Shown piece by piece: positions 6,842 to 58,254 of a stretch of 64,000 nucleotides of DNA. This stretch comes from Bilabrum cf. latius (taxonomy: Eukaryota), in the NCBI GenBank assembly GCA_965178125.1, contig OZ237765.1, forward strand, positions 620,001 to 684,000. Reading direction: 5' to 3'. The translations under genes were made by a program, and so were the position numbers. The number at the start of each line of letters is the position of its first letter. Position 1 is the first letter of the stretch. The notes below the pieces were generated by a model, which had not been told where the DNA came from, ran no database searches, and saw nothing but the letters and a program-made list of their open reading frames with translations.

Positions 6842-6930
6842 CCTGCTTCTATTACAATGGCAGAAGTACACAAGGTACCAGACTCCGAATTGACCGACGA
6901 GGTCCAATTTAATTTGCCATTGTAGTCAAA
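6842..6930. promoter_or_regulatory. Very short (89-bp) divergent intergenic region, probable bidirectional promoter
   Basis: Lies between the inferred ATGs of DPH6 (-, 6841) and the next gene (+, 6931); AT-richer than the coding flanks. Confidence 0.5.
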
Positions 6931-8173: not shown

Positions 8174-11100
8174 TCACCCTAAAGGCGCCACCTTTGCCTT
8201 GTTTCCTCCTCCCACGTTGACGTCGGTCTGCGCCCCGCTCTGCATTTCTCGCGTTGCTTCCTTGATCGCTGCCTGCAGAGCCAAGTGATTTAGAAGCAAG
8301 GACTCGGGAAGAAGCACCAACATCTGCCTCGCCGACATCAGAGGCAGCTAAAGCAGTTTCAGCTACGAAATGTAGACCAGGGTCGCGACCGCAAACAGAC
8401 CCACGAACACCCACGTCGCGATCTCGATGTTGCGTCCAGTGTCGTGGAGCCTGGCCATCATGCTGAGGTAGAACCGGGCGATGGTGACGTCAAGGGAGTG
8501 CTGCACGTAGGGTGACATCATGTCCCTGAGCTTGTCGGCCTCGTACAGGGCGTACTCAGCGATGGACAGACTCGACACAGTGCGGTTCAGTCCAACAAGC
8601 TGATCTGTTGATTGTGTTGTCAAGCCGGTTGTACTGGTCTGAAGCCTCCTCACGCTGCTTCCGGCCCCATGATAACCAGATTCATACATCGGTTTGCTCT
8701 TCGGGGCTCGCAGCCTCGAGGTACGGGCGCGGAGAAACCGAGGTGTGTTGAGGTCTGTCTCGCCCAGCACGTCCTGCACCTACCCGCCGCCCGTGATGTT
8801 GCTATACACGCGGGCAGCAAAGTCTCTCGCCTCGAATGACCACGAAGCCACGGCTGACACGAGACCCTCGGCGATGATGCCATCTTGCAGGGAGCGACAG
8901 TCCTCAATCACGGGCTGCACTAGCCGAGGGTCGGATGGAGGAGGGCGCAGGTCTTGATTTTGGCTCTGCTGCACGATGGCATCCACACTGACAGACAGGT
9001 ACTGCATTGGTATGCAGCCATCTCGATTAAGCACGTTGTATACCTCCTTCTCTGTAGTATCACGGCCGTCGTCCCGGATGCCACCCGCCTGAGTATGCCT
9101 GAGCGGTGTCTCGTACAGCCTGTCGCCCTTCTCGCCGTCTGCGAAGATTAGCATGTCCGCGCTGGCCTCTGCTCCCGTTGCTAGCATCGAGCTAAGCTGC
9201 TCGATGATTCGAGTCAGGGTGGCAATCTTGGACGCCCGGTGCTCAATGCTGGCCTTCCGTGATGTCTGGTTGGCAGTCGGGTCATGGTAGTACGCGTATA
9301 GATCTTCTGCCATTGCCTAAGCATTCGTGGACAGCAGCTGGGATCTGGCCTGGATGGATTGAGTAACGACTGCTCGCTTGGTGAGCGTGCCTATATCGTA
9401 GCCCAGGCTGGTCTGAATAAGCAAAAGAGCCCCGGCAAAGACGAGAATGGTGGAAACTGGGAGCAGCAGGCAAGCAATGGACCGGCATACGAAGGTAGAC
9501 GAGTTCGAATGGCTGCGCATGTGCTCCCGCGCATCCGTTAGCGTTCGCTGCTGGACCTCGTAACGTGACTGACGCTTCTACCTTAGAGCTGAAGATCGGC
9601 TAGGGGAAGCGCTCGAGATAGCAGAACCACGCCTTCCTCCGAGCTACAAGGCGTCATCATTGTTGGCAGTCGCAGTGGCAGCAGAGTTCGGTGCTTCTAA
9701 GCCGTATCCGTGACCACTTGGTATGATGGACACACGGCCGCGCTGGGGGCTGTCGCTGCTGTCGCTATCAGACTCCGCGTTCTCATCCTCCCAAAGCTCC
9801 TCCTCTAGATCGCTGTCTTGCATGCTGCTGTCGCTCCCTAGCACTGATTCGCTTTCGCTGAGCACCTTCTCGAGGCTCTTCTGCGAGTACTGCGCCAGCC
9901 GCTTGGCGTGGGTCTGCGAGATCAGCATGAAGATACGCAGCACCTGGTCTGTCTTCTCGCCCAGCTGACGAAGCAAGATCACGAACGACGACCCGCCCAA
10001 GATCAGCATCACGCCAGTGGTCACCGCCCCAAACAGAAGCACCTGAATGCCATACTGCTCAATGTTGGTCTCGAGCCGAACCTTGTGCCTCCGGGTGGCA
10101 TACGACATCATCAGATCCACCTCCTCGGCGTTCTGCACCACGAATTGCACGTCCCGGATGGACCGCGATACGGCGTCAGTCGCCCCTTTGCCCACTCTGC
10201 GGAGGGCTGCCACGAGGTCACGCAGCTGCTCTTCGACTGTCTTGAACTGGGTGCCACCTCCGGACAGGCCGGGTAGCTTGATGGGCAGCTCTCTGGTGAT
10301 CTCGAATGTGTCGTAGATGCCGGCCTCCTGGATCGCCTCTTGCAGCCTGCCGTGAGTGTCCTGCACCTCGTCGGCATCCAGCAGCATCAGGTGCTGCAAC
10401 GCAACTGGATCGTGAATCTCCTGCCTGTGCACCAGAGACATGTTGAAATTGGTCAGCTGTCGCGCTGGACTTGAACCTTGTCTGTGCATCTGGTTGGGGT
10501 AGTCAGGGTACACAACCTGTCCATTCATCACCACCTCGTACGGTGATACAAGGTCGATGTCATTCCGGTTCGCACTCCACACGAGCTTGTTCTCAGCACT
10601 GAGAAAGGCTAGCTGCCGGCGGCCCGCAAGCCAGACGGTGTTGGACATCTCTTGCAGCACGTGAACGAAGTTGCGGGTCCAAAGCGTCACCAGCACGCCC
10701 ATGACGAGCACCACGAGGGCCTGCACCCCGAGAAAGCGGTTTGAGATCCGGATCTGGGACTCGGTGGTGCTGGCCGCCATCTGGGCCGCAGTACCGAGTG
10801 CGCTACGACCAGCAATCGAGGACGTGCTATACTCCGAAGGCACCGAACCGGTGCCAGCTGCGTACGCGCCGGCCCTGTCTCCGTTGCTACCTCTGCCCTG
10901 CTTGACGGAAGCAATCTGAAGAGAAGTAGAATGGCGGCGCCCTGCAAGGCTTGCACCCCCGCTAATTCGTTTGGCTTCTCTACTCCCCCCTCTGTCAGAT
11001 CGCCCCGCACTACCGCGTCGTACCGCCCACCTCGCAGATGGCCCTGGTGTTGCAACGTATGCACCGGTCTCGAAAGTGATGCTTCTGCCAGCCTCAGATA

Positions 11101-14100
11101 GCAGCTGACTGGCCGAAGTCTCGTCTGCGCTGCCATTGGATGGCTCCAGCGCCATGTTGTTGGTGCTGGAAGATATGGGTCTCTTTCGTGACAGCTCCGA
11201 TGGTGGCATGGACTGCACTACGCTGGTGGGGTCTGCTCCAAAAGCAGATGAAGCCGGCCTGTTCCTAGGCGTTGACGCTTCGCTGCCTGCCTTGCCCCCC
11301 GAGTCTACATGGCCTTTTGGCGACTTCTCATGCTTGGCTGGCACGTCCTATTCGGCCTGGGCCTAATGTAGAGCATACGCTGGAGAAGACACGGTGCTTC
11401 TTAAGCTAGCAATGTGTCTCCAGGCCAAAACGTGCAGGCGACCGTGCTCTGGGATGGCGGCCACTTGCACGTGCCCCAGGACCACCACATCGCCCTGCGA
11501 TCCGCGCACTGGGATAAGCCCAACCTGGTGCAAATTCCGCATTGAATCAATATGTACCCGGTTTGCAAGCTCGCCGGACGTCGCTTCCGCTACTGCCGCA
11601 TGCCTGCTTCTGCTTCTCTTGACCGCGTGTCTGGGCTCTCCGCCAAGACCACTGCCGTTTGAGCTAGAGGCACTGCCGGGCCTTTTATGCAGATGCTTTG
11701 TAGAGCCTGCCTCTACAGCTGGACCTCCTGCACTTTCTGAGTGGCCATGTGCCCCGGAGGCGTCGTTCCTCGTGCCTTCACCTGCCCTGCCTTCTTCCTC
11801 GTCGTTCCTATGTCTGGTCCCGGTCCTGATCCTGTGCAGTCCGAGGCACTGGTACACATCGGACACGCCCGGCGTCGCAGCGATAGACTTGATTTGCTCC
11901 GTGCTCAGCTCTCGTTCTTCTTGGAACGATGCCTCCACGGATGGGAAGAACTGCGCCATGCTGATCACATCTGACTCTAGGTCTTCCGCATCCAGCCCAA
12001 GCAGCCGCAAGGAACCAGCCGATGCGGAATAGATCTGGAAGTTCTGCTGCGATCCACCGAAAAGCAAAAAGTTCTGCTCTGTCGCAATCTCGGATATTTC
12101 CGCGGTGAAGCGAGGCTCGGCCGTGACCTGATCCGGAGGTGCCTCGCTCACGGCCAGCCATATAGGCATGATGGCCCCTCCACGCCTACGCCCAAACAAC
12201 ATTCTGCTTTGACCAACTACCCTGCTTTTTTTGTTTTTCCTCTAAAATGCCCGCAGTAGCTTGTCGTGGACAGCGTCGATCGGGCTGGGGATGATCGTGC
12301 TGACGTTTTGTCCCACCAGCTGGTGGTGGGCGCACTGAAAAAGACGGCACGATGACTAGGAGGCATGGATAATCTCTCCCATGTTGGATGGCTTACCCGA
12401 GATGGTAATCGTGGCAGCAGATTCGTCGAATGAGGGCCTGTCCTGCTGCACCGCCCCGAAGCGCACGGATACGACTCGCTTGGACCTCTGCTTGCGAGCC
12501 TGCTCTTGCACGCGCTGGGCCTGATTGTGCAGCTCGTTGACTCTGGGCTAGTCTGCCCTGAAGTCAGACAGGTAGCTCGCGTACTGGTGCAGCAGCACCG
12601 CGTTGTCACGCTGGAAGCTGAAGAGCCGGCGATAGGCGCTATCCGTTCGCTCGATCGTGTCATGCAGCGTTACGCTCGTGTCCATCAGGTTTGCCAAGTC
12701 GGGGCTGTCCACGGTGAGCTGGGTAAACAGACGGACCAGCAGTCGGTACGCCACGACTCGCAGCTGGGCAGTCTCGCGGAGGGCAGAGTCGAACAGCACG
12801 CGGTCGAAAGAGCTGAGCCCGACTCCTTCCGTTTCCCGCATGTCCCTCACTCGCTGGGCGATGTAGTACCTCGAGTCGAGAGCGGGGGAGCACTTGAGCG
12901 CCTGCGACAGTGCAATGCACTCCCTGTACCGATACCGGCTGGTGGTCCGCTCGAAGATAGACAGCCCGATGAAGGCCTGCTCGTTGGTGGAGAACGTCTC
13001 CGCCGCGCCCTCGTACGCCCTGCGCGCCTCGTCTTCCAGGAGCTGTATCTCGGCCTTGAGTTGCTCAGCGGATAGGTGCTCGGCGTTCTGCAGGTGCACG
13101 CCACGGTAGTCTGCGCTGCCGATCATGGATCGAATCTGCGCTCTCCTCGCCGCCTGGCCAGTCGGCTGCCCCAGGGATTGCGCGGGCACGCTCTGACCGA
13201 CTGCGGGAGCGGGAGCGATGTCAGCTGACGCATCTTTGCTGCTTGAGCCTGTACCAAAATCACGAAAACTGCCCTAATGAGCAACCCTGCGCCTCCCAGA
13301 CATGCCTGGATCATTCAACTGACTGTCGACTTCGTTCGAACTCCAACGCGTGCGCGCTGCAGAGATGGTGTCCAGCCCTGCCTCCTCGCGCTCGCTCGTT
13401 GCTGAGGATCTCTCAGATACGGCTCGTTCCAGCATCTGCTTCAGGATGGCCCGCCGCTGCAGCCGCCGCCTTCCCCACAGGTGCATATCGCTCACCGAAG
13501 TGCACTTCTGCAGGGGCTGCTGACCCACTGCACTTAGCCGGCGACTGACCACGCTGAAGATCAGCAGCGCAGTGACAGGAACTCCGTACAGCACGCCCAT
13601 CGTGGCTGCCTCTGTGCTGGCGTACTGTGCCACGAGGAGGCTGGCCGCGGCAGTGGCGAATGCAGCCCCCGATGCAGCGAAGAACGCGTTGACGTCGCGG
13701 TGCGTGTAGGGTGCCCAGGTCGAGAACTGGTACACCTTGGCAATGCCAATGAACAGGAGCAGGAGGGTGAATCCCGTCGTGCCAACCACGAGGTCACCAA
13801 TGATGGCGTACGTGAACGAAAGCCCCAGCTTGAGCGCTACGTTGAGTACTGCAGCCCGTCCGGTGCTGATGGCCCCCCACGCCTGTGAATCCGGGCGGCG
13901 ATCGACGAAGATGGCCGCCACAAAGAGTGACAGAGCACTGAAGCCCAATATGAGTACAGAGAAAATTGTAGATAGTACCATGTGCGCCGGCGAGCCGCAC
14001 TCTATCGAAGTACGTAACCAGCTCTCGCTGTCGTCAGGACAGCTTGCCCCCCGCAGTAGAAATCCAGCCACGGGCAGGAATAGTACCCCTGTTGACGCCG

Positions 14101-14527
14101 AAGCTATCAATCGAAGCGAGTGGATGAGAAATGGAGTCTATGGAAGATCTAAAACAAAGTTCCGCGCAGCGTATACTGCCAGCCCGAGAAATCCGGCTAC
14201 GAACGACGCTGCGACTGACAACACCACGAGGTAGGCAGTTGGGTTCGTTTGGGGATCAAACGGCTGGCTGAGAAAACTAATGCTCGCAACAATAGGAGCG
14301 AATAGTCTGGTCTCTGTCCAAGGCAGCAAGGGAGAGTCGTTCATTACGAACGACAACGTCTGAGCTTCGGAAATGAATGCCATCATGGCGTACAGCCACC
14401 GAGAGTCGTCTTGAAGCTCCCGGCTAAACGTGAAGCCAAGTCCAAAGAGACCTTGCAGTGCGGCGTGGTACATGCGCTCTAGCACTGATTTTTCCGCGTC
14501 ATCGTGTCTGAGCTGATGCGATGTCAT
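8174..14527 (-). CDS. PAS-domain multi-pass membrane protein, TmcB/TmcC-like, ~2117 aa, single exon
   Basis: Runs from ATG 14527 to TGA 8176-8174 in one frame with 13 TAGs (14138, 13274, 12548, 12356, 12242, 11363, 11348, 9644, 9578, 9317, 8780, 8363, 8348). It has an N-terminal multi-TM block, a helical region (LLHQYASYLSD), a PAS domain (GEIIHAS*SSCRLFQCAHHQLVGQNVSTIIPSPIDAVHDKLL) and further TM pairs. It ends with RQMLVLLP, a motif I associate with this protist family. Confidence 0.85.
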
Positions 14528-14962
14528 CTTGGGTGCCTGCACTGTGATCGCCTGGTCGCTCACTGGTAAAAATGCTCCTCAGTGTGATCGGCGCCTTTTC
14601 TAATCCCTATCTCTTCAAAAGAGAAGCACCACTACCTAATTATTTGAGGATTTGAATATCGGCTGTGATTATCTTTCGTTGACTGAGAAAATGCGACACG
14701 TGCCAGGGGCCTTCTGCGGGCTGGTCCATTCGTTCCGCCGGTAATTGCGCGCGGCGCCGATTGCTCAGATCGTGGCCTGGTATTCCGGTTGAGAAAATGC
14801 TGGAGGGACAAGCAGAAAAGTTTCTAAAGATGGAGCGGATCTAACGTACTAAAGTGGTAGGTCAACAGTATCGACGACGATGAGTCAACGACCTCCTTAC
14901 ACAAATTTCATAATCTTGGATTTCAAAGCAGACACCAACACCAACTGCGACATTTATGTTTA

Positions 14963-17900
14963 TTATCGGGAAGCACCGGCCGGCGAGCCTCCCCCATCCA
15001 TGGCAGCTTGTGACTTCTTCTTGCGCGCCAGTAGCCGCGCAGCCCCAGTCAACCGCCTGGAGGGGGAGGCCTTGGCCGGCGAGGGCGACCCCGAAGCCGC
15101 AACACGACCCGCTGGAGACTGCTTCGACTTGCTTGGATCTCCCAGCCTGCTCTTGAGCACAGCCGCTGCCTCGGCCGCGAGACCCCTCTGCAGATTGGCA
15201 CCTCGGCCGCCGCTGCTGCTACTGCCCCCGAGCCCTCGCTTGATCGTGCCCCCGAACAGCTTTCCTCTCACCGTGCGCCGGCTGCGAGGAGGAGTCGGCT
15301 TCCTTCCGCCCGGGGTCGGGGGCGACACCCCGTTGCTACTGCCTGCCCTGGCGGCAGCCTGCAGCTCCCCTTTCTGCAGACGGATGGTCAGCTGCCTGCG
15401 GGCCGCGTCCACACCGCGCCTGAGCTCCTCTGCCATCCCCCTGCCCCTACCTCCTGCACCGACCTTGCCGCGGCCGCGCGGCCTGGGCGCCGGAGGGGAG
15501 CCGAGCTGGGGCGCGGGTGGCGTGGCGGTTCCGCTGGGCTCGCTGCCGCGGCGCCCCACGGCTTTCCGTGCACTGCCTGCAGCGGCGACACCCGGGGACA
15601 AACCCAGTGCGGGCGACTCTAGAGATCCATCGTCGTCGTCGCCACCGTTGCCATGCATGGCAACCTGCGCCCCGAACGCATCCTCGTCTGCAACAGATTG
15701 CGCGTGCAGTGTCAGTTTCTGCCGCAGCGTGCCCGAGGCAGCGAGCCGCTTGGCTCTATCCTGCCTCTTCTTCTTGCCCGCTCGTAGAGCCTTGGCTCGC
15801 TTCCGCGCTTTAGCTGCGGATGCGTCAACTTTTGTGCCCTTCGCAGCAGACCCGGGATTCCCTCCGGATGATGCAGCTGCAGCGGCTTCCGCCGCCTTTT
15901 TCCGCTTCTTCATCTCCCGCTCTCTTGCGCTTGCCAGCTCCTGTCCGAAACTCGCCAGCATCCGCACTGCAGCAAGGGGGTCTCTTTCCAGCGTCTTGTC
16001 GGCGAATCGAGAGCTGAGCGCCTTGAGGGCCTCCAGCGCCTCGTCCAGCGAACCCTTGACCCCGGCAAGAGCCTTCTCGGCAGCCTCAATGAACGGGATG
16101 CCTGCGGTCTTCAGGCGGTCGGCCGGGCGAGGGGGCCCATCCACTGCCCCGCCTTGATCCGCCTCATCCTCCTCCTTCGCACCCCCGATCCCACCCCTGG
16201 CAGCGCTTGCCTTCCGCACAGCCCCCGCAACTCCCCTGACGTCGCCCTCGAGCTGCTGCATGACTGCCTCCAAATCGTCCAGGTGGATCCGGGACGCCTC
16301 CACCACCACCTCAAGATCTTCCGGCAGTGCGATGCACCCTGCAGCTTGGAGTAGCTCGCCCCCGGGGGACACGAGGATGGCCTGCTCCTGCGCGCCTTGC
16401 GCCGGAGGAGGTTTTGACCCTTCCGGCAGCATGCCCGTTGCTGGGCTTGCGCTCGCCCGGGCGATCACATCTAACACGGACACCTTGGCACCGTCCAGTC
16501 CACCCGTGGTTTTCGTCGACCTGAGTTTCTCCAGTGCTCCTAGCTTGAAACCGCGGGCCTGTCCGCGGGAGGTACCTGCGTTCATCCTGTTGCCCGCGAA
16601 GAGGACCAGCCTCAGGACGGCAGGCAGCGACTTGCTGAGCCGGATGGCCCGCGCAGCCGCAGCCAGGGTGTCGACCTGTTCCCGCAGAGGAGCCAGCACC
16701 GGGTCTGCGTCGCCGCTCGGTGGCTCGGGGAGGCTGTCTGGCGGCAGGTCCGCCGACAGTCTGCGGGCTAGCTGCATCAGCTGCACCCGCTTGTGCGCTT
16801 GGGGCACTGACATGGTTTCCACCACGAATCGCTCCACCTCTCCTAGTCGAGTGGGATGGTGTTCCGGGCCCCCCTGTCCCAACCACTCCGTCACCTGCTC
16901 CTGCTCTTCCAGCGTTCCCAGCAAGGGGCCCAGCAGTTCCAGCTGCTCGTCCGATATACCCTGGCACTGCAGCAACCTATCCCTAGCCTGAATCGGTGTC
17001 AGCTTCAGTCGATGCAGAGCGATCTTTGCGTTCTGCTGCCTCTGCTGCGAGAACAGCGTCACCTTCTCGACTTTGGCGGCGCTGGAGCGCGAGCTGACGG
17101 ACGCGGCATCCGAGCCCGCGCCGCTGGCGGCACCCGACGGCGTTGCCTTGCTCCCGGGTGTCTTCACCTTTTTCGCGGCACTTGCTTTCTTCTTGAAGGC
17201 CTCGTCAAACCATTGCACGGGCAGCTCGTCACCTTTTTCCTGAATCTCCGGCCAGATGCTGCCCTCCGCCACGGCTTGCCTGTCGGTGATTTTCATCCAG
17301 TGGAATGGCTACATCTTGTGGGCGGGCTTGGGCTTGGGTGCGGCCTTCGGGGCGATTTTCCCGGCGGCTCCGGGGCGCGCACCACCACCGCCTCGGGGTC
17401 CTGGCCTGGCGCCCCCGGGGCCTGGCCGCGCCCTGGGTCCTGGGCGAGCAGCTCCCGGCCCGGGTCTCGGGCGAGGCCCCGGTCGGCTAGCCCCTGGTCC
17501 AGGCCTCCCGCCACGTGGTCCCGGCCTGCTAGCTCCTGGTCCTGGGCGAGCTCGGGGTCCAGGTCTCCCGGCTCCAGGCCCCGGTCGGGCCGTGCCAGGG
17601 CCAGGCCGAGCGGTGGGCCGCGGCCTTCCCGGCCTGCCCGGGCCTGCTGCTCCTGGACCAGGCCTAGGTCTGGGTCGAGCAGGTCCTGGCAGCACCGCAG
17701 CACTTGGGGTGCCTCCGGTAGCGGAAGCGGCTGCGGTGTTGTGGTTGGCAGCCTGCTGTGCCTGTTCCCTGGCTTCATCCCGCTCCTTTCTGGCCTAGAT
17801 GGCGGCTTTCTTGGCCGACTCCGCGGCTGCCTCCGCCTCTGCCAGCTCTGCTTGCACCTGCTCCGTCCGCTTGGCTAGCCGCTTGGCTTCCTGTAGCTGC

Positions 17901-19459
17901 TCCCTAAGCGATTCCAGCTCTGTGCGCGCCTGCGATAAAGCAGTGGCGTCGTTACTTGTTGCAACACCAGCCTTTGACGGCACGACACTCGTAGAAGTTG
18001 TGCTAGCACCGCCATTGGCTGCAGCCCGCCTGAGCGAAGCGTTCTCTTCCTGCAACCGTCGGATCGCAGAGAGTTCGTCCAAAGAAACCGATGGGATCGA
18101 GCCGTCCTCCTCCTCCAAATCACCACCCAACTAGCCGCTCCCACCAATACCGCCGTCGCTGCTGCTGCTGGAAGATGCCCCGCCAGCCCCCATGACAGCG
18201 CCGTGCACAGCCTTTTGGACGCCCCCCCACAGCCTTTCGCTCACCTGGCCCTGGCCCCTTGGGATGGCCATGAGCAGGTGCAGCACGCTCAGCAACCGCT
18301 GGATCTGCTTACACTCCGCCGCACCGCTGAGAACCTACGTGAAGGCAGCCTGCGGTGAGCCCGCCTCCCGTCCCGCTGATCGCATGACCTCCTGCTGATC
18401 CCTTGCCCTGGCTCTGTCGAAGGCCTCTGTCTGCTCCACGACCTGAGCAAGGGCGGAGGAGAGATCGCCGGCGCTTCCATGCCCCTCCTCGTCGTCTCCA
18501 TCGTCTTCGCCCTCCCATTCAACGCTACCCGCCGCTGAGCCAGCCCCGTCGTCATCCCCATCCTCGTCTATCTCCCCCAGCACGGCCAATGCCAGGTCCG
18601 CCCCTTCCACCAGGCCTTCCTGCGCGGCCCGGATGCCCGCCAGGTCCAGCTGGGAGCGTACCTCCACCCGGTCCTGCAGCCCGTGGGGAGCCGCGCGCAC
18701 CAGCGTGTAAACGAGGGAGAACACGGCGGCGCGGGCTCGCCAGTGTGACGAGTGAGACAGCTGCCACTCCTTGGCGGCCGCTTCGAGGTCCCGGGACCGA
18801 TACCCGGTGGGCACGCGCCCGTCGGCGATCTCTTTCGTTTCATCCATTTCGCGCCTGGGCACTGCCATGGCTCGGATGAGAGAGGCCAGCGGCGCTCTGG
18901 ATGCAGGATCAGATGTGAGGGCTGGGGCAGCAGCCGGCGGGGTCGCTCGACCTGCAGCTGATTCGTCGCTCTCGCTGTCGGAGTCCTGTTCCTTGGCGGC
19001 GCCGCGGAGACCCATTCGTGCAAGCAAGGCATCTGCTGCGGCCTCATCATCGTCTTCTTCTTCTTGGTCTGCCCCCGTGTCAGCCTCGGCAAGCGCCTCG
19101 AGACCGAGCAGCGCGTGCGAGTGGAACCCCGGCATAGCCGCCACAACGCCCACAGCGTCCGCGCCTAGTCTCCTAACGTTCGCGTTGGGAGATCGGAGAC
19201 ACAGGGCAAAGGCGTCCACTGCATCTTGGCAGTCGGCCATAGCGACCAACGCCTCCTGGCTGCGATCGCTTGCCTGCCTAAGGCCTCGCAAGAACGAAAT
19301 CACGGCGCTCTGCTCGTCAAGAATGGTGGATCCCGCTGCAAGCTACAAATCAACGGAAGCAGCGCTGATAACCACACTCGCGTTGTCCGGCGCCGTGGCC
19401 AATTTTTCTGTGCAGTCGTTCAGTCGTTGAGCTACGGCTGCACTGGCATGAGATACCAT
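14963..19459 (-). CDS. Formin (N-terminal helical/FH3-like region, coiled coil, Pro/Gly/Arg-rich FH1-position segment, FH2), ~1498 aa
   Basis: Runs from ATG 19459 to TAA 14965-14963 with TAG at 19343, 18335, 18131, 17795 and 17309. FH2 motifs: KM*PFHWMKI...SIW, QRQQNAKIAL, LVLFAGNRMNAGTSRGQARGFKLGALEKLRSTKT. Confidence 0.92.
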
Positions 19460-19870
19460 AGCTGGACTACGTAGTCCCGTACGGGCCTCTCAGCGTGCTT
19501 AAACCTATTCAAATAGTATCCAATACAATAGACTACAATTGTCACAACAATAAACGAGAAATACGAGGTAGTTTCCCCTTGGCCAATTTTTCTGTGTAGT
19601 TGCGTGCACTTAGGTGCCGACAAATCTTGAGCAACCCAATTCATCCATAACAACGGCCCCACAAATAGATAAAAGGTTCAGTATGGACCCCTTGGGCCTT
19701 CAATAGGATAGTAGACTAGTTAGAGGTGGCATTCTTGACGAGGTGAGCAACAAAACAGCGTTTGTGGACCACTGGACGGCAGTGCTAATCTGCTAGTTCG
19801 ATGCTGCACTCCACAGGCTCTTCCGACTAACCGACTCGCATTCACTATTGCAACTCTGTATCATAGAGAA

Positions 19871-36735: not shown

Positions 36736-37198
36736 GAATGGAAAGCAGCCCTACGAAATGAGAAGCGCCAATTGGCGACAGTAGTGATTATTGACGACAT
36801 ACGCAGCGACATGCACCCCATTGAACTCAGTGATGCCTCACCAAGTCGCGGATTTTCGATCGCAAGTCATCTTGCAACTTTGTAGCAAGCGAGCCTAGGG
36901 AGTCGCTTGAATGGCTTGTCTTGTATGAAGATGCCCCCGCCATGGCCTCTGTGCCGGATCGCTTTTGAACGTGTTGCGATCAACGAACTTTGCATCGCAA
37001 AAACGAACCTTCCCAATTGGCGATGAAATCCACCAGAATTTCATTTCCTGATCTCTGTCATTCAAGTCGCATAATTATTGTGTTTATCTTCTGCACTGGT
37101 GTATTCATAGTGTTGATACACTAAGGCTGAGCTTGAAATAGCTGCTTTGTCAGTGCTTTAGCTGTATCCATTGGAGTTCAGGTCCAACAAACTCAGAA

Positions 37199-40100
37199 AT
37201 GCAGCCAGCCAGTTTGAGTGCGTGGGAGAACGATATCCTTTGGCATGGGGAAGATTTGCAACACTCATAGATTCGCGTAGATACGGAAGGCTTGCATGCC
37301 CAACGCCAGAAAGAACGAGAATCAAGGCGTAAGTCATCCAAGCAGAGAGGCGCGCGGTCGAAAACGTCCGCCTCGCGGAATGTGAAAGGCAACCTCTCCG
37401 GAGCTAAACCCCCATTTTCTCGGAGTGAGAGCGCCATGAGTGCCGGTCTGAGCCTGGGTCCAGTCGCCACCCTGCAGCGGCAGACTTCCATCTCGTCCAC
37501 TTCGTCCCTGCCTGGTCCCGTGGGCGCCCTCCCGAGCGCCCGCCAGCCCTCCATGATCTCCGACAAAGACTCGGTGGCCGAGAGCGTCGCTGATTCCATC
37601 GCGTCTGGGACGCCTCGGCTGGGCTCCGTGGGGCACTTGGGCTCGTCGAGCTCCTTGCTGCTGCCCGGCGGCGGAGGGGCGTCGCCATCGGGTGCAATGC
37701 ACGGCGGTGCAGGGCTCGGCAACGCGTCTCTCCTGAGGCGCGGCATGGAGTGGGCCAGCCGGCTGCAGGTGCACTCGTCACTCGCCGCACAGGCCGCCTC
37801 GCCGCACCCAGCCCAGGCTCGCGACACGGCCTTCCTGCTGGCTGCCCTGCAGTCTACCGACCTACACTCCCTCGGGGGCATGGTCAAAGGGAGGGTCCGG
37901 GGCGGAGACTGGGCGAGGGCCGTGCTGCCGCCCGTGGTGCGAGCACGCCGCGATCGAGGCATCGCGGGCAAGAAGAGGGCAAGAGGGGCCACGGGGCCGC
38001 TCGGGAGGTGGGACCCGTGCGGTGTGACGAGTGGGGGGGCAGCCGGTGGCAACGATGATACCCGAGACTGGACGCTTGACGTTGACTTCGGCCTGCCTGA
38101 CAGTTCCACGGGCACTGGCACTGGCACTGGCACTGAGAGCGATGACAGCCAGGGCTCTAGTGGATCTGAGCTGCGTCACGCGGGTGGAGACGCTCGATAT
38201 GCAATCAATTCAGGCATGACGTATGATCGCAGCACTCGTCACACCGAAGCAGTCACGATCGACCTGAACGACCCCGAAGTGGCCCGGATGGCGCTGGTGG
38301 CGTCACCGGCGGAGGACCCATTCGACCCCTTCGCCGTTCGGGCGACCGGCGCGACGAGTGAGTGTGGCGACGGTGTGACGAGTGATATGAGCAGCCTTCC
38401 CGTGTGGCGAGTGCGCGACGTGCGCCGTCGCCAGCTGCAGGCCATGCGCGCCCACCTGTCCGGCCTCCAGCCAACTGGGTAGGCCGAGGGGGGCGGTGGC
38501 GTGGCAACTGCCGACTCGGCGCACAGCACCATCCACCACTCTACTCCGGCGATCGACCTGGCCATGGCCCCTCTCGAGCCGACGCTGGCAGACTGCAGGG
38601 AGGTGTACCGCACCCCCGCACCGGGGTACGTGCACCCCCCGTCTGGCGAGGTGATCCGAGTGTCGGCCAAGCTGCGGGCAGCGGGTGCCGAGTCAGACGG
38701 GGCCGCTGGTGCGAGCCTGGGGCTGGGCGGGGACGATGAGGACGAGGACTAGGAGGACGGGGCGGGGGGCGGGGACTGGAACGCACAGGCGGGCAGGTCG
38801 GGCAGCTGGCTGTAGGTGAAGACGGTGGAAGACCTGAGCGTGTCCCAGGCGGGTGGCAACGTGGTGCTTGTCGAGTACACGGAGGAGAGACCGCCGGTGC
38901 TGCCCATGGCGGGGATGGGCTCGAGGCTGGTGACGTACTACCGCCGAACCGCGCTGGAAGATGCGGAGGCAGACCGCCGCGCGCGCGGTCTCTCTGGCCG
39001 GGGCGAGGGCGACGAGAACGCGGAGGAAGATGAGGAGGACGCCCGCGCCATCGAGGAGGCGGCCAGGCTGGGGGGCGCTCAAGGGGATGAGGCTGCGGAG
39101 GCCAGGCGAAAGGAGCTGGAGGGGAATCGATTCCGGATCGTCAAGGCGGACGAGGACGCCGTGTCTGTGACGAGTGAGGCGCTGGACGCAGATCTGGCGG
39201 GAGCCCTCGCCATCGACGCCTCCACGGCAAGACAGTGCGGCCACGGCCCGCTGCTGGGCGACGAGGAGGTGAAGAGGCTGGGGCTAGAGGCAGGAGGCAG
39301 CGAGGACACCGGTCGTGGTCGCCGCGGTAGGCTGCTGCTTGAAGACAGTGGTGGTGCTGAAGGCGGCAAGGAGCGGGCGAACTAGTCCGGTGCGGATGGA
39401 CGGGGCGGCGGACAGGCAGACAGTCGCAGGGGCACTAGAGTGCAGCGGCTGGGGCAGCTCGTGGAGCTGGACAGCAAGCAGATCTCGCCGCTGCTGGGCG
39501 GGGTGGAGGAAGGGGAGTACTGCCCTGCGATCTTCTCTTCTTTGCTGGTCGCACCGGTGGCCAAACACGACAGCCAGACGGGTGACTTTTTGGTCTGCAT
39601 CCGGCGCGTGCCTCGGCACAGGCGATCGGGCAGCAGCAGCAGCAGCAGCAGCTCTGCAGGAGCAGCGGGTGTTCAAGACACAGATGGGCCGGGTGACTCG
39701 TCTAGCTTCAAATGGGTGGCCACCATTCGCGAGATCCCAGAGTTGCTGGTCGCGGGGCAGGTGGAGCCCAAGCTGCCCGTGGCCGCGCCAGACGGCAAGA
39801 ACGTCTCCGCGATGCTGGACCTTTTCCTCTCCCACCAGCTGGCCAAGTTCATGTAGGTCTGCGGGGGCACCATGTCACCAGAGGTGGTGCAGGGTACCTT
39901 CCTCCGGACGTCAGCCCACGTCAGCCTGCGGAATGCCCTGGAGAGGGTTGCGTACTATCATGACACGGCCAAGCGATGGGTCGCGCGCGCTGCCTCCGAC
40001 GACACGAACCTTCGCACGCTGCGCGGCACCCTTACACCGGAGTAGGTGTGCCAGCTCCTTGGCATGTTTGCGGGCCTGCAGGCCCTTCGGGACGCGGGCG

Positions 40101-43100
40101 TCGTCGCATCGGCCATCATCGGGGCGGCGCAGACCAGCGTGAACCGGCTGAGCCACGCCATCGAAGTGCTCATGGATCGGCTGGACCCGGCCAAGATGGC
40201 GGAGAGGAGGCACGGCGTGCTCGGAGTGGTGGCGCAGGCTGCCAAGGAGAGGGATGCGCCGGACCCCCTGGCAGATCCGCTGGCGGGCATGGGTCCGTCA
40301 GAGGACCCTTTGCAGGCGGGGCTCAGGGACGCGGAGAGACGGTCCAGGATGGCGGCGGGCGGGGGTGCATTCTCAGGGGCAAAGTCCCTGGCCGCCCGTG
40401 TGATGACCCGGCAGGCCGCTCTGGGTGAGCTTCCCTTTGAGGAGGCAAAGGTGGTGGCGGCCAGTGCGCTGGAGGGCACTTCCAGGGGCAGGGCTGTGCT
40501 GCGGCGAAGGCTGCTGGAGCTGAAACGAACCAAGAAGGCATGCGTGGCCGTGCTTCGGCTGCTGCAGACCACTCCCTGGAACCTGACAGAGTCCTTCGTG
40601 CAGGCCACGCAGAAATCGGGCGGGGGCGTGCTGTCCCTCTCGGGGCCCCAGGGCTCTCTCGCCGGCGACCCGTCGGGCCGGAACCTGGGCTTCAGTTTCA
40701 TCAAGGAACCCAGCATGAAGAAGAAGACGGGCCAGAAGAAAGCAACGGTCAAGAGGGAGGGCACGGACCGGGACAGCCGCAAGCTCACCAAGGCACAGCT
40801 GAAAGGCATGCTACTGGAATACGGCATGGACCCTTAGGTCATCGCCAAGCTGACCAGGTGGGACCTGGTGCGGGCAGTCAAGGAGACCCAGGCGAATCTC
40901 GCCGACCGTCGCACGCTCGCAGGCCGCGGCCTAGCGTACGACGACATCAAGTTCATCAGTAGCACCCAGAAGACCCAGATCGAGCGGCAGCAGCTCAAGA
41001 AGAGGCACGCGCGTGCACTGCACAGGTCCCAGCTCAAGGCGCTCCGGAATGCAGACCCCCTCAGCAGCGGCTCTGACACGGGCAGCTCGGACGAGGACTC
41101 GGAGTTGGAATCGTCGCAGAATGGCAGGGACGGCAGGGCAGCTGGGAGAAAGGCTGCGATGCCGCCTGGCGGCGGCGGATCAGCAGGGGCTGCCACAGCG
41201 GGACAACAGCAAGGACAAAGCCGGGGGCAGGACCAGCACGCCGCGATTGAGGCGGACTTTGATCTGGGCGGGGACGATGATGCTGACGAGGGGGGCGGCG
41301 ATGCAGGTGGGAACGATCGAGGGAGTGCGGTGGGAAGCAAAGCCGGTGCCAGCAGCGTGGCGGGGTCTGGAGGCAGGGCCAGCCGTGGAGGAGCTAAGAA
41401 CAGCGACGACGACTGGGAACGGCGCGCAACGGGAGGCGGTATCGGGCTGGCCGACGTGGATGACGAGTACGACGAGGCTTTGGAGCTTGCAGAGTACAGG
41501 GCGGAGCTGAAAGGGAAACAGGCTGGGGAGAAGGGGGTCGGGGGCGGGGCGTTGGTGCGCCAAGGGGGTGTGGGCGGCGGCAAGAAGAAGCAGCCGATGC
41601 ACGTCACGATTCGCGTGCTGCCGCAAGACTTGGTGGCATTTTCGAACCCTTCGTTTGTCAATGCCGCGCAGTTTCAAGTCGACGAGGGTAGCGAATCAGG
41701 CAAGGCCAACGGCGGCGCGGACGGCCGAGCTGGCCAGAGCAGCAAGCGGCAGTCCAGACCTACGCTATCTGCTGACGATCTCCTTGGGGGAGACGCTCAC
41801 ATGCTGGACATGGACGGGGAAGGGGGCATACTCAGCATGGCAATGCCAGAAACCGACCTGATGGCATCGCAGGATAGCCTCTTTGACCCCGACGGTGATC
41901 TGGATGGTATGGAAGGTATGGATGGGGTGGCGTCGAGTATGCACCTAGGCAAGCAATCGAACGGCAGCTTGCGGCTGGATCTGAATGGATCGGGCCCGCG
42001 ATCCGAGTCTTCTTTCACTGACAGCGAGGATGAAGAACAGGACGAGCAGCATGGCAGTGGCGGTGCCGGCCCAATGGCAGTGTCGAGGTACGGCTGGGGC
42101 GCTGACGTGGACTCATCTGCAGCTACACCGCTGGTCGCGATGGACGCAGAGGCTCTGAACCGGCTCTCGCTCGAGCAGATCAAGGAGCGGGCGGGGTCAC
42201 CTCCCTCCGAGCACCACGTCATGCGTCGTACGGTACGGCGGATCGACGAGCAGGGCAGGGAGTGGGTCACGGTCACCTTCGAGAAGAGGAAGCACGCCAA
42301 ACTGGTCGCGTGGCTCAGGGGTCGATTCGGCCTGGACCTGCTGGTCCTCAGCAACAAGAAGAGGAAACAGCAGGCCGTGAAGGATTCCCAGGAGAGGATC
42401 AGGGACCTGTCTCGCCTGCAGGTGCTGTACCAGAAGGGCTTCCTGCAGCAGCTAGGGTTCACGGAAAGCTCGACCAAGGTGACGTACGTGAAGCTGGCGG
42501 GGGAGGAGACGGTGCCCGTGTGCACCCGCTGCCGGATGTGGGGGCACTAGAGAACGAACGAAATGTGCCCTCTGAACTTTTCGGGTGGCATAGGCGGCGC
42601 AAGGTCTCTGCACGGGCAGTCTTCGCAAAAGGTGGTGCGCCGGCCCGGGGGCCGCAAGGGCAAGTACTATGAAGAGGAGGAGGACGAGGCCGATTTTGAG
42701 ATCGAGGACGATGATGACGAGGACCTGGATCTGCCGGACGACAGTGAAAGCGGGACGGTGGCAACGGGCGGTGCGGGGTCAATGTCGGGCAAGTCAACCG
42801 GAAAGCTCTCGTTCAAGATCAACACCGCGGACATGGCCAAACACGCGGAGAAATCCACCACCATCCGGCTCGGCAGGCAGACTTCCGTAGCTTCGTCCAC
42901 TGCCGCGGGAGGCGCGGGCGGCAAGCCGAAGCCCAGGCCCATCGTGATTCACGAGGCCATGGGGGCCCGCCTCGAGCTGGGAAGGGAGCTGGAGCGTTTC
43001 TGCGTGAAGCTGCAGAGTGACGACACTTCCGGTTTGTTCGGCCTCAGGAGCGAGCAGCAGATCAGGGAGCAGGCGGCGCGGCAGGGAATCGGGGGCCGAG

Positions 43101-43516
43101 TGGTGGTGATGACCCCGTTGCACAAAGTGCTCGTCAGGGGCTTCGACGAGGAGGGGATCCGGGAGTACCAGAGGTGGAAAAGAGCGGCGGAGCGTGCCAA
43201 AGAGAACGGACTGGAGCTGCCCCCCGTGCCGACGGATGGTCCGCTGGCAATGCCAGTAGACATGGCTGGCGTCAAGCGCAAGTGCGCGAAGGGGGCCTAC
43301 AGCGGCCCGTATGAATTCCTGAAAGACGTGCGGAGGGTCGTGGATAGGGCTCGGGCGCACGGGCAGAGGCAGCTGTCCATGGGGGAGCCACAGAGGGGCA
43401 ACAGGGTGCTGCAGCTGGCATCGAGGATGCTCAAGGCAGCCGAGGCGGTCACGCGGCTGGCGCGCATGCAGGTCCTGGCGAAGGCAGTCAAAGCCGAGGA
43501 GCAGGCGGCACTGTGA
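37199..43516 (+). CDS. TAF1: TFIID subunit 1 (TAF1), ~2100 aa; start provisional, upstream exons possible
   Basis: One frame to TGA 43514-43516 with TAG at 37268, 38480, 38750, 38813, 39383, 39854, 40043, 40835 and 42548. DUF3591/HAT-region motifs: LVEYTEERPPVLPMAGMGSRLVTYYR, APVAKH..DFLV, VAGQVEP, TPE*VC, TPWNLTESF, GDPSGRNLGFSF, GTDRDSRKL..LTRWD. A zinc knuckle CTRCRMWGH*RTNEMCP and a C-terminal bromodomain-like segment follow. Confidence 0.92.
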
Positions 43517-52216: not shown

Positions 52217-55200
52217 ATGCGACAACTTGTATCTATACTAGTACTTGTAGGGATAGAAAAAGCGGCGCTCCAGAGCGCCGAGCGAGTAAATGTGGAGATC
52301 GACATCACGGGAGCTCAACCAACGAGGTTCCGCCAGGCTCACGACCACGGCGGCCATCCGCACTCGTTCAATGACATGCATGAGTGCATCCACGATGATA
52401 TAATTGAGCACTACGAGAAAATTGGTGCCGGTTGGCCGGAGCCTGCCGAGCAGGCGTATGACAGGGAGCCTCCGCCGTACCCGGCACCCACGGGCGGCAA
52501 GCGAGCTCGAACGCTACAGGACTCCCAGAGTGACTATCAATCAATACGAATTCATGTTGATGTCTCCCGATTGTACCCCACCAAGTGAGCGATCTGCACC
52601 TGTATGCATGCCAGTGCGAGGAGACCTCGCGTACTGTGTGTGAACCTTGCTAAGCTGTAAGAGCGCCCAACCACCTTACGACACCCTAATGCATCAACAT
52701 TGCATTTCATCGCAGAGATAGACCGTACGCGTGCCACGGCATAACCGAGACATTCCGAGACACGTACTTCACGAAACTCGCCGGCGGAGCGTTTCCTCAG
52801 GAATTGCCGTGTTTGGAGGCAGACGTGATCACAGACGAGAAGCGAGACTTCTTGGTGAACAAATTGCTGCCAACTACAGTCCAATGGTTGCGTTAGGCCC
52901 TCTCCGTGCGGCCAGTGCAGGCGCCGCTGCGATTGCCAAGCACCATGTCGGCCGCGTCCTGCTACAACCACTGGGACTATTACGCGGGATTCGTGTGCTG
53001 CGACGACCAGATGATCCCGGAGCACAAGACGGATGGGATCTCGAACACCGATTACGTTATGCATGTCACCGCGCGGCCGGCCCGCAGCTCTATCGTGGCC
53101 TGGGCCTTCCCATGCCAGAGCGACCAGAACCGGAGGCCAATCTCGGGACAGATCAACTTTGTGCCGCACAAGATCGACACCTCTCCCGAAACCCTGCAGT
53201 CGAGTTTCATCAAGTCACTGCACGAGCTGTTCCACAACCTCGGATTCTCGGACTCGTTTTTCCCCTACTACCGCAAGCCGGGCACCAACCAAGCCATCGG
53301 GGGCGCCTACAGGAGCGTGCGATTCCCGCCCGGGCTGTAGAAAACCGCAAACACCTTCGTCATGGAAAACGCGGTAGAGAAAATGAAGGAGCACTTTGAC
53401 TGCTACAACCTCCCAGCCTCGCACGGGGTCGAGCTCGAGGACGGCGGGGGCGGCTCGACGATGGGCAAGCACCTGGAGGAGCGCATCTTCTACAACGAGC
53501 TGATGAGCGGCTGGATCAACCAGAACTCCAAGCCGACCCCGCTGTCGCTGGCTTTCCTGCAGGACAGCGGCTGGTATCAGGTAGACTACTCTGGCACGGA
53601 GAGCATGGGCTGGGGCAAGGGCGAAGGGTGCGATTTCGTGCTGAACCGTTGCGACCAGTGGCCCGACAGGTACTTTTGCTCGGTTCCGAACGAGGATGGG
53701 TGCTCGCCCGACCTGCTCTCCAAAGCCGTCTGTAACGCGTACAACTCTGGCGCGGCCTTCGAGTCCAAATTTCAGTACTTTCCCGACACCCCAACGAAGG
53801 GTGGCAAGTTTTCGGGGGCCGACTACTGCCCCTTCTACTCAGCGCGGTCCAACGGAGACTGCTCCTCTACCACGACGCCGCTCAGCTTCTTCTACGGGGA
53901 GTCGTCAGGGAGCGGGTCACGATGCCTGATGGGAGACTTCCAGCTGGCCAGCTACTCGAGGACGAGGGCCCACCACGGCGCCTGCCTCAAGACATCGTGC
54001 CTGCGCAATCAGATCATCACCGTCACACTGGCCCCGGGGCGGCCATACCAAGCGGTGGTGGAGTGCCCCGTGGAGGGCGGTGACGTCGATCTCGCCGCGC
54101 TGCCAGAGACGCAGAGCGACTGGGTGGGCGTCCTAAAGTGCCCCCCCTCCAGGCTGCTCTGCACGGGGGATCCCTGCGGCGTGCAGGACTGCAGCGGACA
54201 CGGGCGGTGTGTATCCGCCGATGGGTCTTGCTTGTGCAGCAGCGGGTACTACGGGCTAGACGAGTTCGCGTGCGACCGAAGGAGGTGCCCGGTGGGTCCC
54301 GACGGCACCGAGTGCAGCGGAAACGGGAACTGCGACTTCAGCACCGGCACGTGCACGGACGCGCAGGGCTTGCCCGGGTGCTTCCCGGGGTACAAGGGGG
54401 CAGATTGCAGCCAGCTGGGGTGTCCCGAGAGCGCAACACCGCAGTGCAATGACCCCATGGGGTGCGAGTGCGGGGCGCGGGGCGCCTGCGTGAACGGCAG
54501 CTGCGCGTGCCAGCCCGGCTACATCTCCAGCGACTGTTCCCTCACCGAGTGCCCAGGGACCCCGAGCTGCGGGGGCTCCGAGCGCGGGTCTTGTGACCAG
54601 CTGCACGGCCTGTGCGAGTGCGGCGTGGGTGTGGCTGCCTCTGGCTCGGGCGAGTCGGTGTACTATGCTGGGCCTGGGTGCGAGTACGAGATGCGCGGAG
54701 ACTCGAGGCCGGTGGCCACCATCCACTTCGACCAAGAGATGAATGCGACTACTGGGGCGATGTCTGGTCCCATGGCAGCCCAGCTGCCGCCGGAAGAGTA
54801 CTCCGTCTTCGAGTTCGACGTGCCCTCTGTCGAGTACGACTACCAGCTCACTGTCACTGCGACGTCCTGGAACACGACCGGAAGCCCACAGCCGCCTCAG
54901 GTTGTCGCAGCCTACGTCACATTCGGCACGCCCACCCTCCGCAGGCACCAATTCAGGGCCCAGGAGGTGAGCGGTAGCAGCACTCAGCGCAGGATAGTGT
55001 TTCAGAGCGAGGGCACCTCGGATGGCCCCTCGGTGTTCAACGAGGTGGGGACCATGCGGGTGGCCATGGTGTCCCAGGCCCGGACAGAGGTCAGCATCTC
55101 GCTCACAAGGGATGGGTGCGCCGTCCTGGACTGCGGGGAACACGGCAGCTGCGTGCAAGGGCAGTGCATCTGCAACCGACGGAGGGAGTCGGAGCGCCCC

Positions 55201-58200
55201 GCGAGCGTGTACGGGTACGCCGGACCTCTGTGCAGGGTGCTCGATTGCCCCGGCTCGCCCGACTGCGGCGGGGCGCGTGGCACCTGCCTGGCCCCCGACC
55301 CTAATGCGGAGTCCACGGTGGACCAGCTGTTCCCTCGGTGCCAGTGCGAAGAGTTGTTTGAGGGCGAGTCCTGCCAGAACTACGCCCTGCCTTCTGGAAC
55401 GGCCGTCTTCGGAGCCAGGCTTGACACGTTCAGTCCGTACGCGAGGTCCGACGACGGCGCGCCCTAGCTTACGGCGAGCCCAACGGGTGCAGGGTCCGTG
55501 ATTGTGGCAAACTACACTGGCAGCGTGGACGTCGGCGAGCAGTCGGACAGGCTCTTGATCGACCCGTCGGAGCTGCGTCGCTGCTGCGGCGTGAACGGCA
55601 GCGCGTCTGTGCTCGTTACTCTGGATGCGCGACAGAGCGGTGAGGGAACAGACCCCATGCTGCTGGCCCGCACGGATCTGCAGCCCACGCTAGAGGAACA
55701 CGACTACTTCGATGACACAGCATGGGCGCTCGGCAGTCTCGTGCACCAGATCCAGCTGACGGTGCGGCAGGGCGAGCTTGCCTTCGTCTCGGTGAGGAAT
55801 GGCAGGTACAGCACCCGAAGGCTAAAGTATTTCCTGTCCGTTGAGCTTGCCTCGGGCACGTGCCTTCCATCCCTGCAGAGCTGCTCTGGCAACGGCGTGG
55901 GCGACTGCCAGGAGAAGTGCAGCTGCAAGCTTGGGTGGGAGGGCGTGCGGTGCGACGTGCCGACCCCCGTGCTGACCAGCGGGACCGTCGCAACCACGCC
56001 AGTGCTGGCACCCGGCAACGAAGCGTTCTTCGTGCACGAAATTCCGGACGGCACCAAGGAGGTCAAGGTCTCCGCCAGGCGAGGCATGGCATCGGCGCCA
56101 GGTGCTCAGTTCGCGCTCAAGGCTGTGCTTGAGAGAAGCCGCAACGGACGTTCCCTTGCAAAGCTGTACAGCGAAGCTGCTCTGTACGATTACTCTGGAC
56201 AGACATCGGACAACGGCACCCAGCAGCTCACCATCGAGCGGCCCGACGAGTCCACCCGCTTCCTCTTCCTGTCTGTGAGGAATCTAAAGCAGGCCACCGG
56301 CGATGCCATCGTGGATCTTGCAGCCGTGTCGCACACGGCGTCATCGCTGGAGCCGTGCGAGGAACGGGAGTCTGCAGACGAGTGCGGACAGCGGCAATGC
56401 AGCGGAAGGGGTATGGTGCTCGTCCGAAACGGGGAGCCATTTTGCGAGTGCGAGTCCGGGTGGGCTTCCTCCACGCGGTGCGCGTCCCCAAGGTACTCCA
56501 GCTTCTCCAAGATCCAAGAGGCCGCGCAGGAAGTAGAGTACCTCTGCTCCATATGCGAGTCGGAGCTGTCACTGGAGGCGGGCGAGCTGGCCATCCTAAA
56601 GGTGCCGCCCCCGCTGCAGCTGGGAAGCACGCTGACGCTCGAGGTGCAGGGACTCCTCAGCGCGACAGGCGAGGGCACTCCCGGAAACGCTACGAATGGC
56701 TCGCTGCCAAGCGGGATGGGGTCCAGACGGCAAAGGCGAAGGGCCCAAGTAGCGATACCAATCGACAACGAGGCGGAACAAGCTGCGGGCGTGCAGACGG
56801 TTGGGGCTGTAACACTCATGGCCACAAGCACGCTCCCGAGGTCCATCTCCGATTTCACCACCATCAGCAGCACAGGTGCAAACGCTTCCATCGAGATCCA
56901 GCAGAGCTCCGATGCCTCGAGCGTTTTCATCGCAGCGCACGCGCATCGCAGCGGAATCTTCCGCGTGAGGGCGTTCAAGACGAGGGTTCCGTACGAAGAG
57001 CTGCCGGAGGAGTACTTCGTCGAAGAGGTGGTCAAATGGGTGCTCGGGACGTCGCAGGGCAGAATCGTCCTGGGCATGGCAAGCACCTTCCTGGTAGTGG
57101 TAGTCTTTGGCTGTATCTTCGACACGTGTGCTCCTGATGCGGTCAGGCACTGCCTGACGGGGGGGGGCAAGAACAAGTCCGACCAGGCCGCGAGGAAGCT
57201 GAGGCACCAGCGGGTCGTGGCCGACGTCACGTCAATGCTCTCGCAGCCCTCCGTGCGGAGGCTCGTGTCGAGAAGGAGCATGGGAGGGTCCCAGCAAGGA
57301 CTGGGTGCATCGCACGGTGCGGCAAGTGCCAACGCAAATGCTCGCGGCGGAGTCCCATCAGGCGGTGAAGGTGGCACTGCTAGGGCTCAGCGGGTGGAAT
57401 CGAAGAGCGCGCTCAGCGCTGACGCGAAGCTCATTGATGGTCGGTTCCACGCTGGCCAAGGCTCGCACGCTGGGGGCCTCGAGACCAGTTTGGGCTCGAG
57501 TATTTCGGATGCAGGGCAACTGCAGCACCATGTGCAGTCCGTGAGGGCTCTCGATATGGACAGCGAAGACTCTCTTCCCTCTGATACAGACTCCGACAAC
57601 GACGATGACTTGGATCTGCAGCCACCCAATTCCAACTTTGGTGCCGGTTCCACTGATGAAGTTCCCCACGGCATGGATGGGGACATACCGGCCAGCACGC
57701 TAGCAGTCGGAGCCACACAGCCGCAGCACGTGCATGTTCACATCCAGCCGGGGCAAAGCCCGCTCGTTTCATTGCAGCATCGATCCGCATCCGGAGCGCA
57801 TGCTGCAGGTCCTCAGCATTCGTCCTCTCGAGGAGGCAGAATCTAGGCAGCCAGAGAAAGGCAGCAGTAGCGGCACTCGCAGCAGCAGATCCCACTGAAC
57901 CCGCACAGCAACGCTGGAGACAGCCTAGCTGGCTCGGCCCCGTATCCAAGCTCAGCCTATAGCGGACTCCCACCCGGGATGTCTGGCTCTGCACCGCTTG
58001 CTTCCGTGCCAGGTGGCGCTTACGGCGGCGGTGGGTACCCCGCTCCAGGAGGTTACAGGAGGTACGTCCCCAGAAACAGCACCGCGCGAGGATCTAGTCA
58101 AGGGGGTCGAGTCCTTTCAGGGAGCACGTCGCCAGGGCGTATGGGTGCGGCATAGTCGCAGGCTGAGGCATACAAGGCCTACCGTGGGGCTGGGTCTGGC

Positions 58201-58254
58201 AAGAGAATGGGGAGCCGTCGGGCAGCAGGGTCGAGGCGGCGGCGGCTTGGGTGA
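52217..58254 (+). CDS. Leishmanolysin/GP63-like M8 zinc metalloprotease with EGF-like repeats, TM helix and long cytoplasmic tail, join(52217..52584,52716..58254), ~1968 aa
   Basis: Hydrophobic N-terminus, propeptide HECIHD, and a 131-bp GTGAGC...CTAAT...CGCAG intron. Catalytic motifs: HELFH, ELEDGGGGSTMGKHLEERIFYNELMSG, LAFLQDSGWY. Multiple CSGxGxC EGF-like units and the TM helix IVLGMASTFLVVVVFGCIF follow. TAG at 52894, 53338, 55465, 57844, 57868 and 58153; ends in TGA 58252-58254. Confidence 0.92.

Follow-up and report, generated by a model that had tools for sequence, protein, structure and literature searches.

TAF1 and its in-frame TAG codons

The window analysed here is a stretch of 64,000 nucleotides (C31:620001-684000) from a 48.6-Mb eukaryotic assembly, and it contains a long gene whose reading frame includes nine TAG codons. 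As judged from its sequence, this gene (37199..43516) is TAF1. The frame extends over 6,318 nt from ATG to TGA as a single frame free of frameshifts, no intron was seen in the RNA contigs lying over it, and the rough chance of a frame of this length lacking TAA and TGA, taken from the off-frame rate of these two codons, was ~7e-19. An extra TAG at 37139 lies 5' of the ATG, outside the count of nine. The features of the gene, in window positions, are as follows:

37199..43516, plus strand: TAF1 coding frame, 2,105 codons, ATG at 37199, nine in-frame TAG, stop TGA at 43514-43516
38519..40864, plus strand: DUF3591 (TAF1 core), in four stretches split by long low-complexity inserts
42521..42574, plus strand: zinc knuckle CxxCxxxGH[TAG]RTNEMCP (zf-CCHC_6), profile match below cut-off
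43253..43354, plus strand: bromodomain-like remnant, profile match below cut-off
37268..37270, plus strand: in-frame TAG 1
38480..38482, plus strand: in-frame TAG 2
38750..38752, plus strand: in-frame TAG 3, outside the listed RNA contigs
38813..38815, plus strand: in-frame TAG 4, RNA cover only close to contig ends
39383..39385, plus strand: in-frame TAG 5
39854..39856, plus strand: in-frame TAG 6
40043..40045, plus strand: in-frame TAG 7, PE[TAG]VC; Gln in human TAF1, CAG in a partial second copy
40835..40837, plus strand: in-frame TAG 8, GMDP[TAG]VIAK; Glu in homologs
42548..42550, plus strand: in-frame TAG 9, zinc knuckle GH[TAG]RTNEMCP; Met in homologs

In a Pfam search, DUF3591 matched the frame with 172 bits against a cut-off of 25, which bore out the alignment suggested in the original prediction, and human TAF1 matched at E 1e-19. 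For the zf-CCHC_6 alignment suggested there, the zinc knuckle scored 14.5 bits and the bromodomain 18.2 bits, each below its cut-off, although their order is the expected one. The N-terminal TBP-binding domain PF09247, found in most of the plant TAF1 homologs listed, gave no match in a Pfam search up to E 0.1.

The peptides on which the original prediction had relied, LTPE[TAG]VCQLLGMFAGLQALRDAG (TAG 40043-40045), GMDP[TAG]VIAKLTRW (TAG 40835) and GH[TAG]RTNEMCP (TAG 42548), were all present in the frame. Its count of nine TAGs without a frameshift was exact, but the span 40030..42570 to which they had been assigned contains just three of them. The first peptide had been described as a conserved PEQ site. 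This was correct for human TAF1, where PE[TAG]VC aligns with PEQCC, and for the paralog, but Gln was found at this position in 0 of 46 motif-bearing homologs, mostly from plants; at the GH[TAG]RT site, 42 of 47 homologs carried Met. The reading of TAG as Gln is most likely right, but the independent support drawn from TAF1 was overstated, one of the three cited TAGs matching Gln. The Gln identity is, on the comparisons described below, grounded in the dyneins, eRF1, paralog pairs and an integrase, and as a predicted property of the code it is genome-wide and not specific to TAF1.

Three sequencing runs, X5-X7, were treated as RNA; none of them is recorded as RNA, and X5 is marked 'probably DNA'. 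They were taken as transcripts because X8 runs across GT..AG and CT..AC segments of nearby genes that are missing from X5-X7. The X5 contigs covered most of TAF1 with 0 differences and 0 gaps. Seven of the nine TAGs were firmly bridged by these contigs and one more lay near a contig end, while the TAG at 38750 was uncovered by the listed pieces.

A genome search with DUF3591 detected a single other locus, ~65 kb upstream, which lacks the first part of DUF3591, carries a frameshift and a peptidase-M8 tail, and has six TAGs in its first frame. The dN/dS calculated between the two TAF1 copies was ~0.12 over 434 filtered codon pairs, a value biased low by the filter. The surrounding region (C31:586140-597568, about 25-35 kb upstream of the window) is an old rearranged duplication in which a PAS/TmcB paralog is followed by the TAF1 piece, this piece being fused to the tail of a peptidase M8 gene.

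These data bear on other ways of accounting for the TAGs: removal from the RNA through U-to-C editing or splicing, errors in the assembly, or decay of the gene into a pseudogene. The existence of a second TAF1-like locus would fit a pseudogene, and rare variants can be lost from contigs. Nevertheless, the spliced contigs retained the TAGs without any difference or gap, C-to-T errors would also have yielded in-frame TAA and TGA (none occurred in ten dynein frames of >4,000 codons), the truncated and frameshifted copy is the other one, and the dN/dS between the copies was low. An explanation of this kind is thus scarcely credible, and the earlier view that TAF1 is no pseudogene was upheld: it is transcribed with its TAGs, and the 5'-truncated, frameshifted copy bears TAGs too.

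The meaning of TAG in conserved genes

Ten of the dynein heavy-chain loci found, comprising 47,063 codons and 137 TAGs, were set against 120 homologs from a single subfamily. For 63 of these TAGs the column held at least 30 references, and for 30 it was conserved to 70% or more; the conserved residue in the latter was Gln in 17, Glu in 4, Arg in 3, Asn in 2, Leu in 2, Lys in 1 and Ala in 1. As controls, CAG coincided with Gln at conserved columns in 256/428 cases and CAA in 26/38. For TAG, Gln reached a log-likelihood of +39.6, with Lys following at -41.3; applied to the sense codons, this score identified 61 of 61 correctly. Furthermore, at 19 well-aligned TAG sites in paralog pairs near the window, a test that omits poorly aligned sites, the codon opposite TAG was CAG in 8, CAA in 2, TAG in 2 and another codon in 7.

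It was considered whether UAG could encode another residue, such as Glu, Leu, Tyr or Lys. Glu occupied four of the 30 conserved dynein columns, and a TAG at position 69 of eRF1 stands where 81 of 85 homologs have Leu (the other four have Gln). On the other hand, the likelihood gap between Gln and the next residue was ~81, Tyr occurred in 0 of 30 columns, and the partner codons in the paralogs were mostly CAG or CAA. The tRNA described below bears on this reading in both directions: its C1-G72 pair and acceptor stem are Tyr-like, and its short variable arm speaks against Leu and Ser. Overall, a residue other than Gln was considered very improbable.

When TAG was taken as a stop, the longest frame of the window was 792 aa; when it was read through, nine frames of 941-4,412 aa were obtained, with 80 TAGs after the first ATG and ordinary domains in most of them. 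Besides TAF1, the following genes were recognised:

4100..6925, minus strand: diphthamide synthase and RidA domains, 5 TAG, stop TGA
8174..14578, minus strand: PAS/TmcB-like membrane protein, 13 TAG, member of a paralog pair used in the TAG/CAG swap test
14963..19489, minus strand: formin (FH2), 5 TAG, stop TAA
19739..32977, plus strand: Sec7-PH-ACBP protein, 22 TAG, stop TGA
52690..58254, plus strand: peptidase M8 with EGF repeats, 6 TAG in the stop-to-stop frame, stop TGA

A frame of ~6,600 codons with 69 TAGs also reaches from C31:603214 to window position 3004, its part inside the window being without a confident Pfam match. Small spliced genes adjoin TAF1 at 35696-36957 (minus strand) and 34818-34910 (plus strand), and a plus-strand frame of 417 aa (35476-36729) probably represents an antisense shadow.

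The analysis was extended to 507 kb, consisting of the window with its flanks, three blind 50-kb blocks, a tRNA block, and the dynein and Prp8 loci. From 126 candidate open reading frames (ORFs) of at least 500 codons, 36 were kept after filtering by codon score and overlap. TAG was present in 32 of the 36, and no depletion of TAG near the stop was observed. The coding GC was ~60% and TGA was the main stop, closing 30 of these ORFs, with TAA closing the other 6. All ten dynein frames terminated at the homologous C-terminus, eight with TGA and two with TAA, in a sample that is small and not genome-wide. Prp8, with 4 TAG in 2,791 codons, was uninformative on the meaning of TAG, and its end is not TAG.

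A further alternative is that UAG encodes Gln but is leaky or dual, sometimes terminating translation or closing a minority of genes. In keeping with this, TAG was the rarest Gln codon in the host genes (137/2,172 in the dyneins, 9/99 in TAF1 and 4/133 in Prp8), a single copy of the tRNA(CUA) was found, and eRF1 has kept T32, E55, NIKS, S70 and YxCxxxF. Nevertheless, TAG was the terminal codon of none of the ten dyneins, nor of eRF1 or Prp8, it was not depleted close to the stops of the 36 ORFs, and genes with 22-36 TAGs could not bear much termination. A dual UAG was thus regarded as unlikely, while being the more plausible of the alternatives considered.

Candidate decoding machinery and relatives

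A nuclear tRNA(CUA) with a full cloverleaf and a short variable arm was detected at C23:907607-907679 (69.8 bits), ~100 bp downstream of an ORF with 18 TAGs. It was roughly equally similar to the Tyr, Gln(UUG) and Glu tRNAs: the first pair and the acceptor stem resemble tRNA-Tyr as stated above, and base 73 and the D and T arms are like those of tRNA-Gln(UUG). The tRNA set is incomplete, since only 63 of 780 candidates were scored. Many false tRNAs came out of ARAGORN under relaxed settings and were disregarded, and a pattern search for the anticodon arm gave 19 matches, of which two were true tRNAs, both Gln(CUG), missing the tRNA(CUA). No tRNA was found in a search of the 64-kb window. With the GlnRS domain PF04557, no match was obtained in any sequence, controls included.

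The eRF1 gene (L021:1069-2941, on contig C35) has 439 codons including the stop, in four predicted exons, and ends with TAA. In addition to the TAG at position 69, it carries one at the near-invariant Gln44, a residue shared by 82 of 85 homologs. Its N-domain shows, beside the retained motifs, the substitutions G29A, N30D, I35V, R47A, S60V, N129S and K130H, positions 29-30 depending on a predicted splice junction. A possible link between I35V and variant-code ciliates was sought in the literature, and the search yielded no paper. A second match to the eRF1 family (L022/L023) is presumably a pelota-like protein.

Based on these elements, the dedicated tRNA(CUA), presumably charged with Gln, would pair with UAG and not with UAA, and the altered N-domain of eRF1 may have lost or weakened its recognition of UAG, favouring UAA and UGA, a change that could have contributed to the reassignment. 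Such a model, of a CUA tRNA reading only UAG combined with an eRF1 favouring UAA/UGA, follows the one in the accessible text of PMC5304391.

The best named matches of the dyneins and eRF1 were those of Cafeteria roenbergensis, with ~70% protein identity. In a dynein tree (one gene, 27 rows including 26 of the 120 references, 1,614 columns, quick search) the organism was sister to the Cafeteria clade with an SH-aLRT of 100. The organism therefore appears, from these sequences, to be a bicosoecid stramenopile near Cafeteria. The eRF1 exon of a related species, recovered from a metagenome (L120), was 92% identical in amino acids and 81.6% in nucleotides, with a TAG opposite a CAG of the present gene and TGA as its stop. 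The metagenomic eRF1 loci L176, L180 and L162 (55-67% identity) have in-frame TAG as well. An eRF1 labelled Symbiodinium sp. KB8 (P0176) ranks beside Cafeteria, suggesting that this record may contain bicosoecid sequence as a contaminant.

Taken together, the preferred interpretation, to which a probability of about 0.92 was assigned, is that nuclear UAG would be a third Gln codon throughout the genome, with UAA and UGA still serving as stops (NCBI table 15), and that TAF1 is an intact, expressed gene. Several observations weigh against this. One X6 contig (depth 4.5) had G>A at 40045, 34 bases from the contig end, turning TAG into TAA. Thirteen of the 30 conserved-column TAGs in the dyneins were off Gln, to be read beside a similar 40% for CAG and the small number of TAGs. 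The tRNA(CUA) shared 50 identical positions with tRNA-Tyr, 49 with Gln(UUG) and 44 with Gln(CUG). The lineage placement is drawn from a single nuclear gene tree and best matches, and the related metagenomic species shows one TAG only, with TAG also in 3 of 79 other, more distant loci.

The mitochondrial contig (C111, 38,401 bp) uses UGA as Trp and has its recognisable genes on one strand and 10 tRNAs (ARAGORN); what we take to be nad11 is apparently split. The 18S on C12 is short and divergent. A 17.9-kb contig (C95) holds an rDNA unit whose 18S is unlike this main 18S, looks dinoflagellate-like, and probably comes from a co-occurring organism. Mitochondrial UGA=Trp is also described in the available portions of the papers on Cafeteria (PMC6972860) and Cafileria (PMC6723347).

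Virophages, known variant codes and implications

AT-rich inserts on several contigs corresponded to mavirus-like virophages with the same TAG code, the one studied being:

C5:~266000-291000: endogenous mavirus-like virophage, ~25 kb, with related copies on C3, C7, C9 and C25

Its gene set includes a capsid, an rve integrase (60 bits), a primase-helicase-like gene, DNA methylases and a tRNA-Met, together with what we assume to be a protease, a penton and an ATPase. The major capsid protein matched mavirus-type capsid entries (6g45 at E 2e-10, 3j26 at E 5e-6), and the capsid query gave 11 matches, six at 97-100% identity and five at 21-23%. Ten genes of this element contained 51 TAGs in 4,091 codons and ended with TAA (6) or TGA (4); in the integrase, P[TAG]TNG aligned with PQTDG and PQSSG. 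A search with the Pox_A32 profile gave nothing, a blank that meant little because the virophage elements were found later.

Virophages require a giant virus. Since these elements also appear to use TAG as Gln, a giant virus reading TAG in the same way may be expected to infect the lineage. Among the viral contigs searched, none carried the tRNA(CUA) motif or a capsid closely related to that of the virophage. As far as the accessible part of PMC13524828 reports, giant-virus isolates all come from standard-code hosts.

The code itself, table 15, is already known, and the available text of PMC11687900 lists Iotanema, Hartmannula, Trochilia and Protocruzia tuzeti as cases of UAG alone reassigned to Gln. 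Iotanema spirale, in the accessible portions of PMC5304391, likewise keeps UAA as a stop and requires a tRNA(CUA). It is a fornicate and not a stramenopile, its tRNA was predicted but not found, its eRF1 has T32G whereas T32 is retained here, and its tRNA was proposed to derive from a mutated tRNA-Gln(CUG), an origin that is not obvious for the present tRNA(CUA). Hartmannula sinica and Trochilia petrani use the same table with no sign of dual meaning, and their TAGs fall at conserved Gln in 58-70% of cases, against 57% here; in contrast to the TGA-dominated present genome, these ciliates have mostly UAA stops, and a suppressor tRNA was not detected in their assemblies (the same partial text of PMC11687900). 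Unlike the context-dependent codes of Condylostoma and Blastocrithidia, no depletion of TAG towards the 3' end was seen here, nor did TAG end any of the dyneins.

Cafeteria roenbergensis shares the mitochondrial UGA=Trp and an integrated mavirus (PMC6972860, available text), and its nuclear code would be the standard one because its database entries for dynein and eRF1 have full length and, in that text, a variant code is mentioned only for mitochondria. The endogenous viral elements of Streblomastix strix (PMC10120064, in part) are likewise integrated DNA viruses in the variant code of their host, but that code is TAR=Gln, whereas here the integrated elements are virophages resembling mavirus, and the reassignment is confined to TAG. 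Further comparison literature comprised PMC10553269, PMC11412368 and PMC12220804. No published nuclear code change in a stramenopile or bicosoecid was found in literature that excluded most subscription journals and supplements; hence, the stramenopile instance appears to be without an earlier report.

A wider proposal, put forward tentatively and with some doubt, is that this code change would be the first for a stramenopile nucleus and common to a small clade around Cafeteria, with a tRNA(CUA) not derived from tRNA-Gln(CUG) and virophages using the same code, and that the lineage is a candidate host for those marine code-15 giant viruses to which no host has yet been assigned.

Codes that reassign only UAG are rare; the Gln cases listed in the consulted portions of PMC5304391 and PMC11687900 include no stramenopile, and Iotanema, Hartmannula and Trochilia appear there without a decoding tRNA. 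The present contiguous genome gives the tRNA, an altered eRF1, transcripts and, in Cafeteria, a relative whose code is probably standard, which makes the uncoupling of UAG from UAA directly testable. It also represents a GC-rich, TGA-dominated case, in contrast to those of the ciliates. Standard annotation would split most of the long genes of this lineage, and the virophages sharing its code may provide a handle on the matching of codes between viruses and their hosts.

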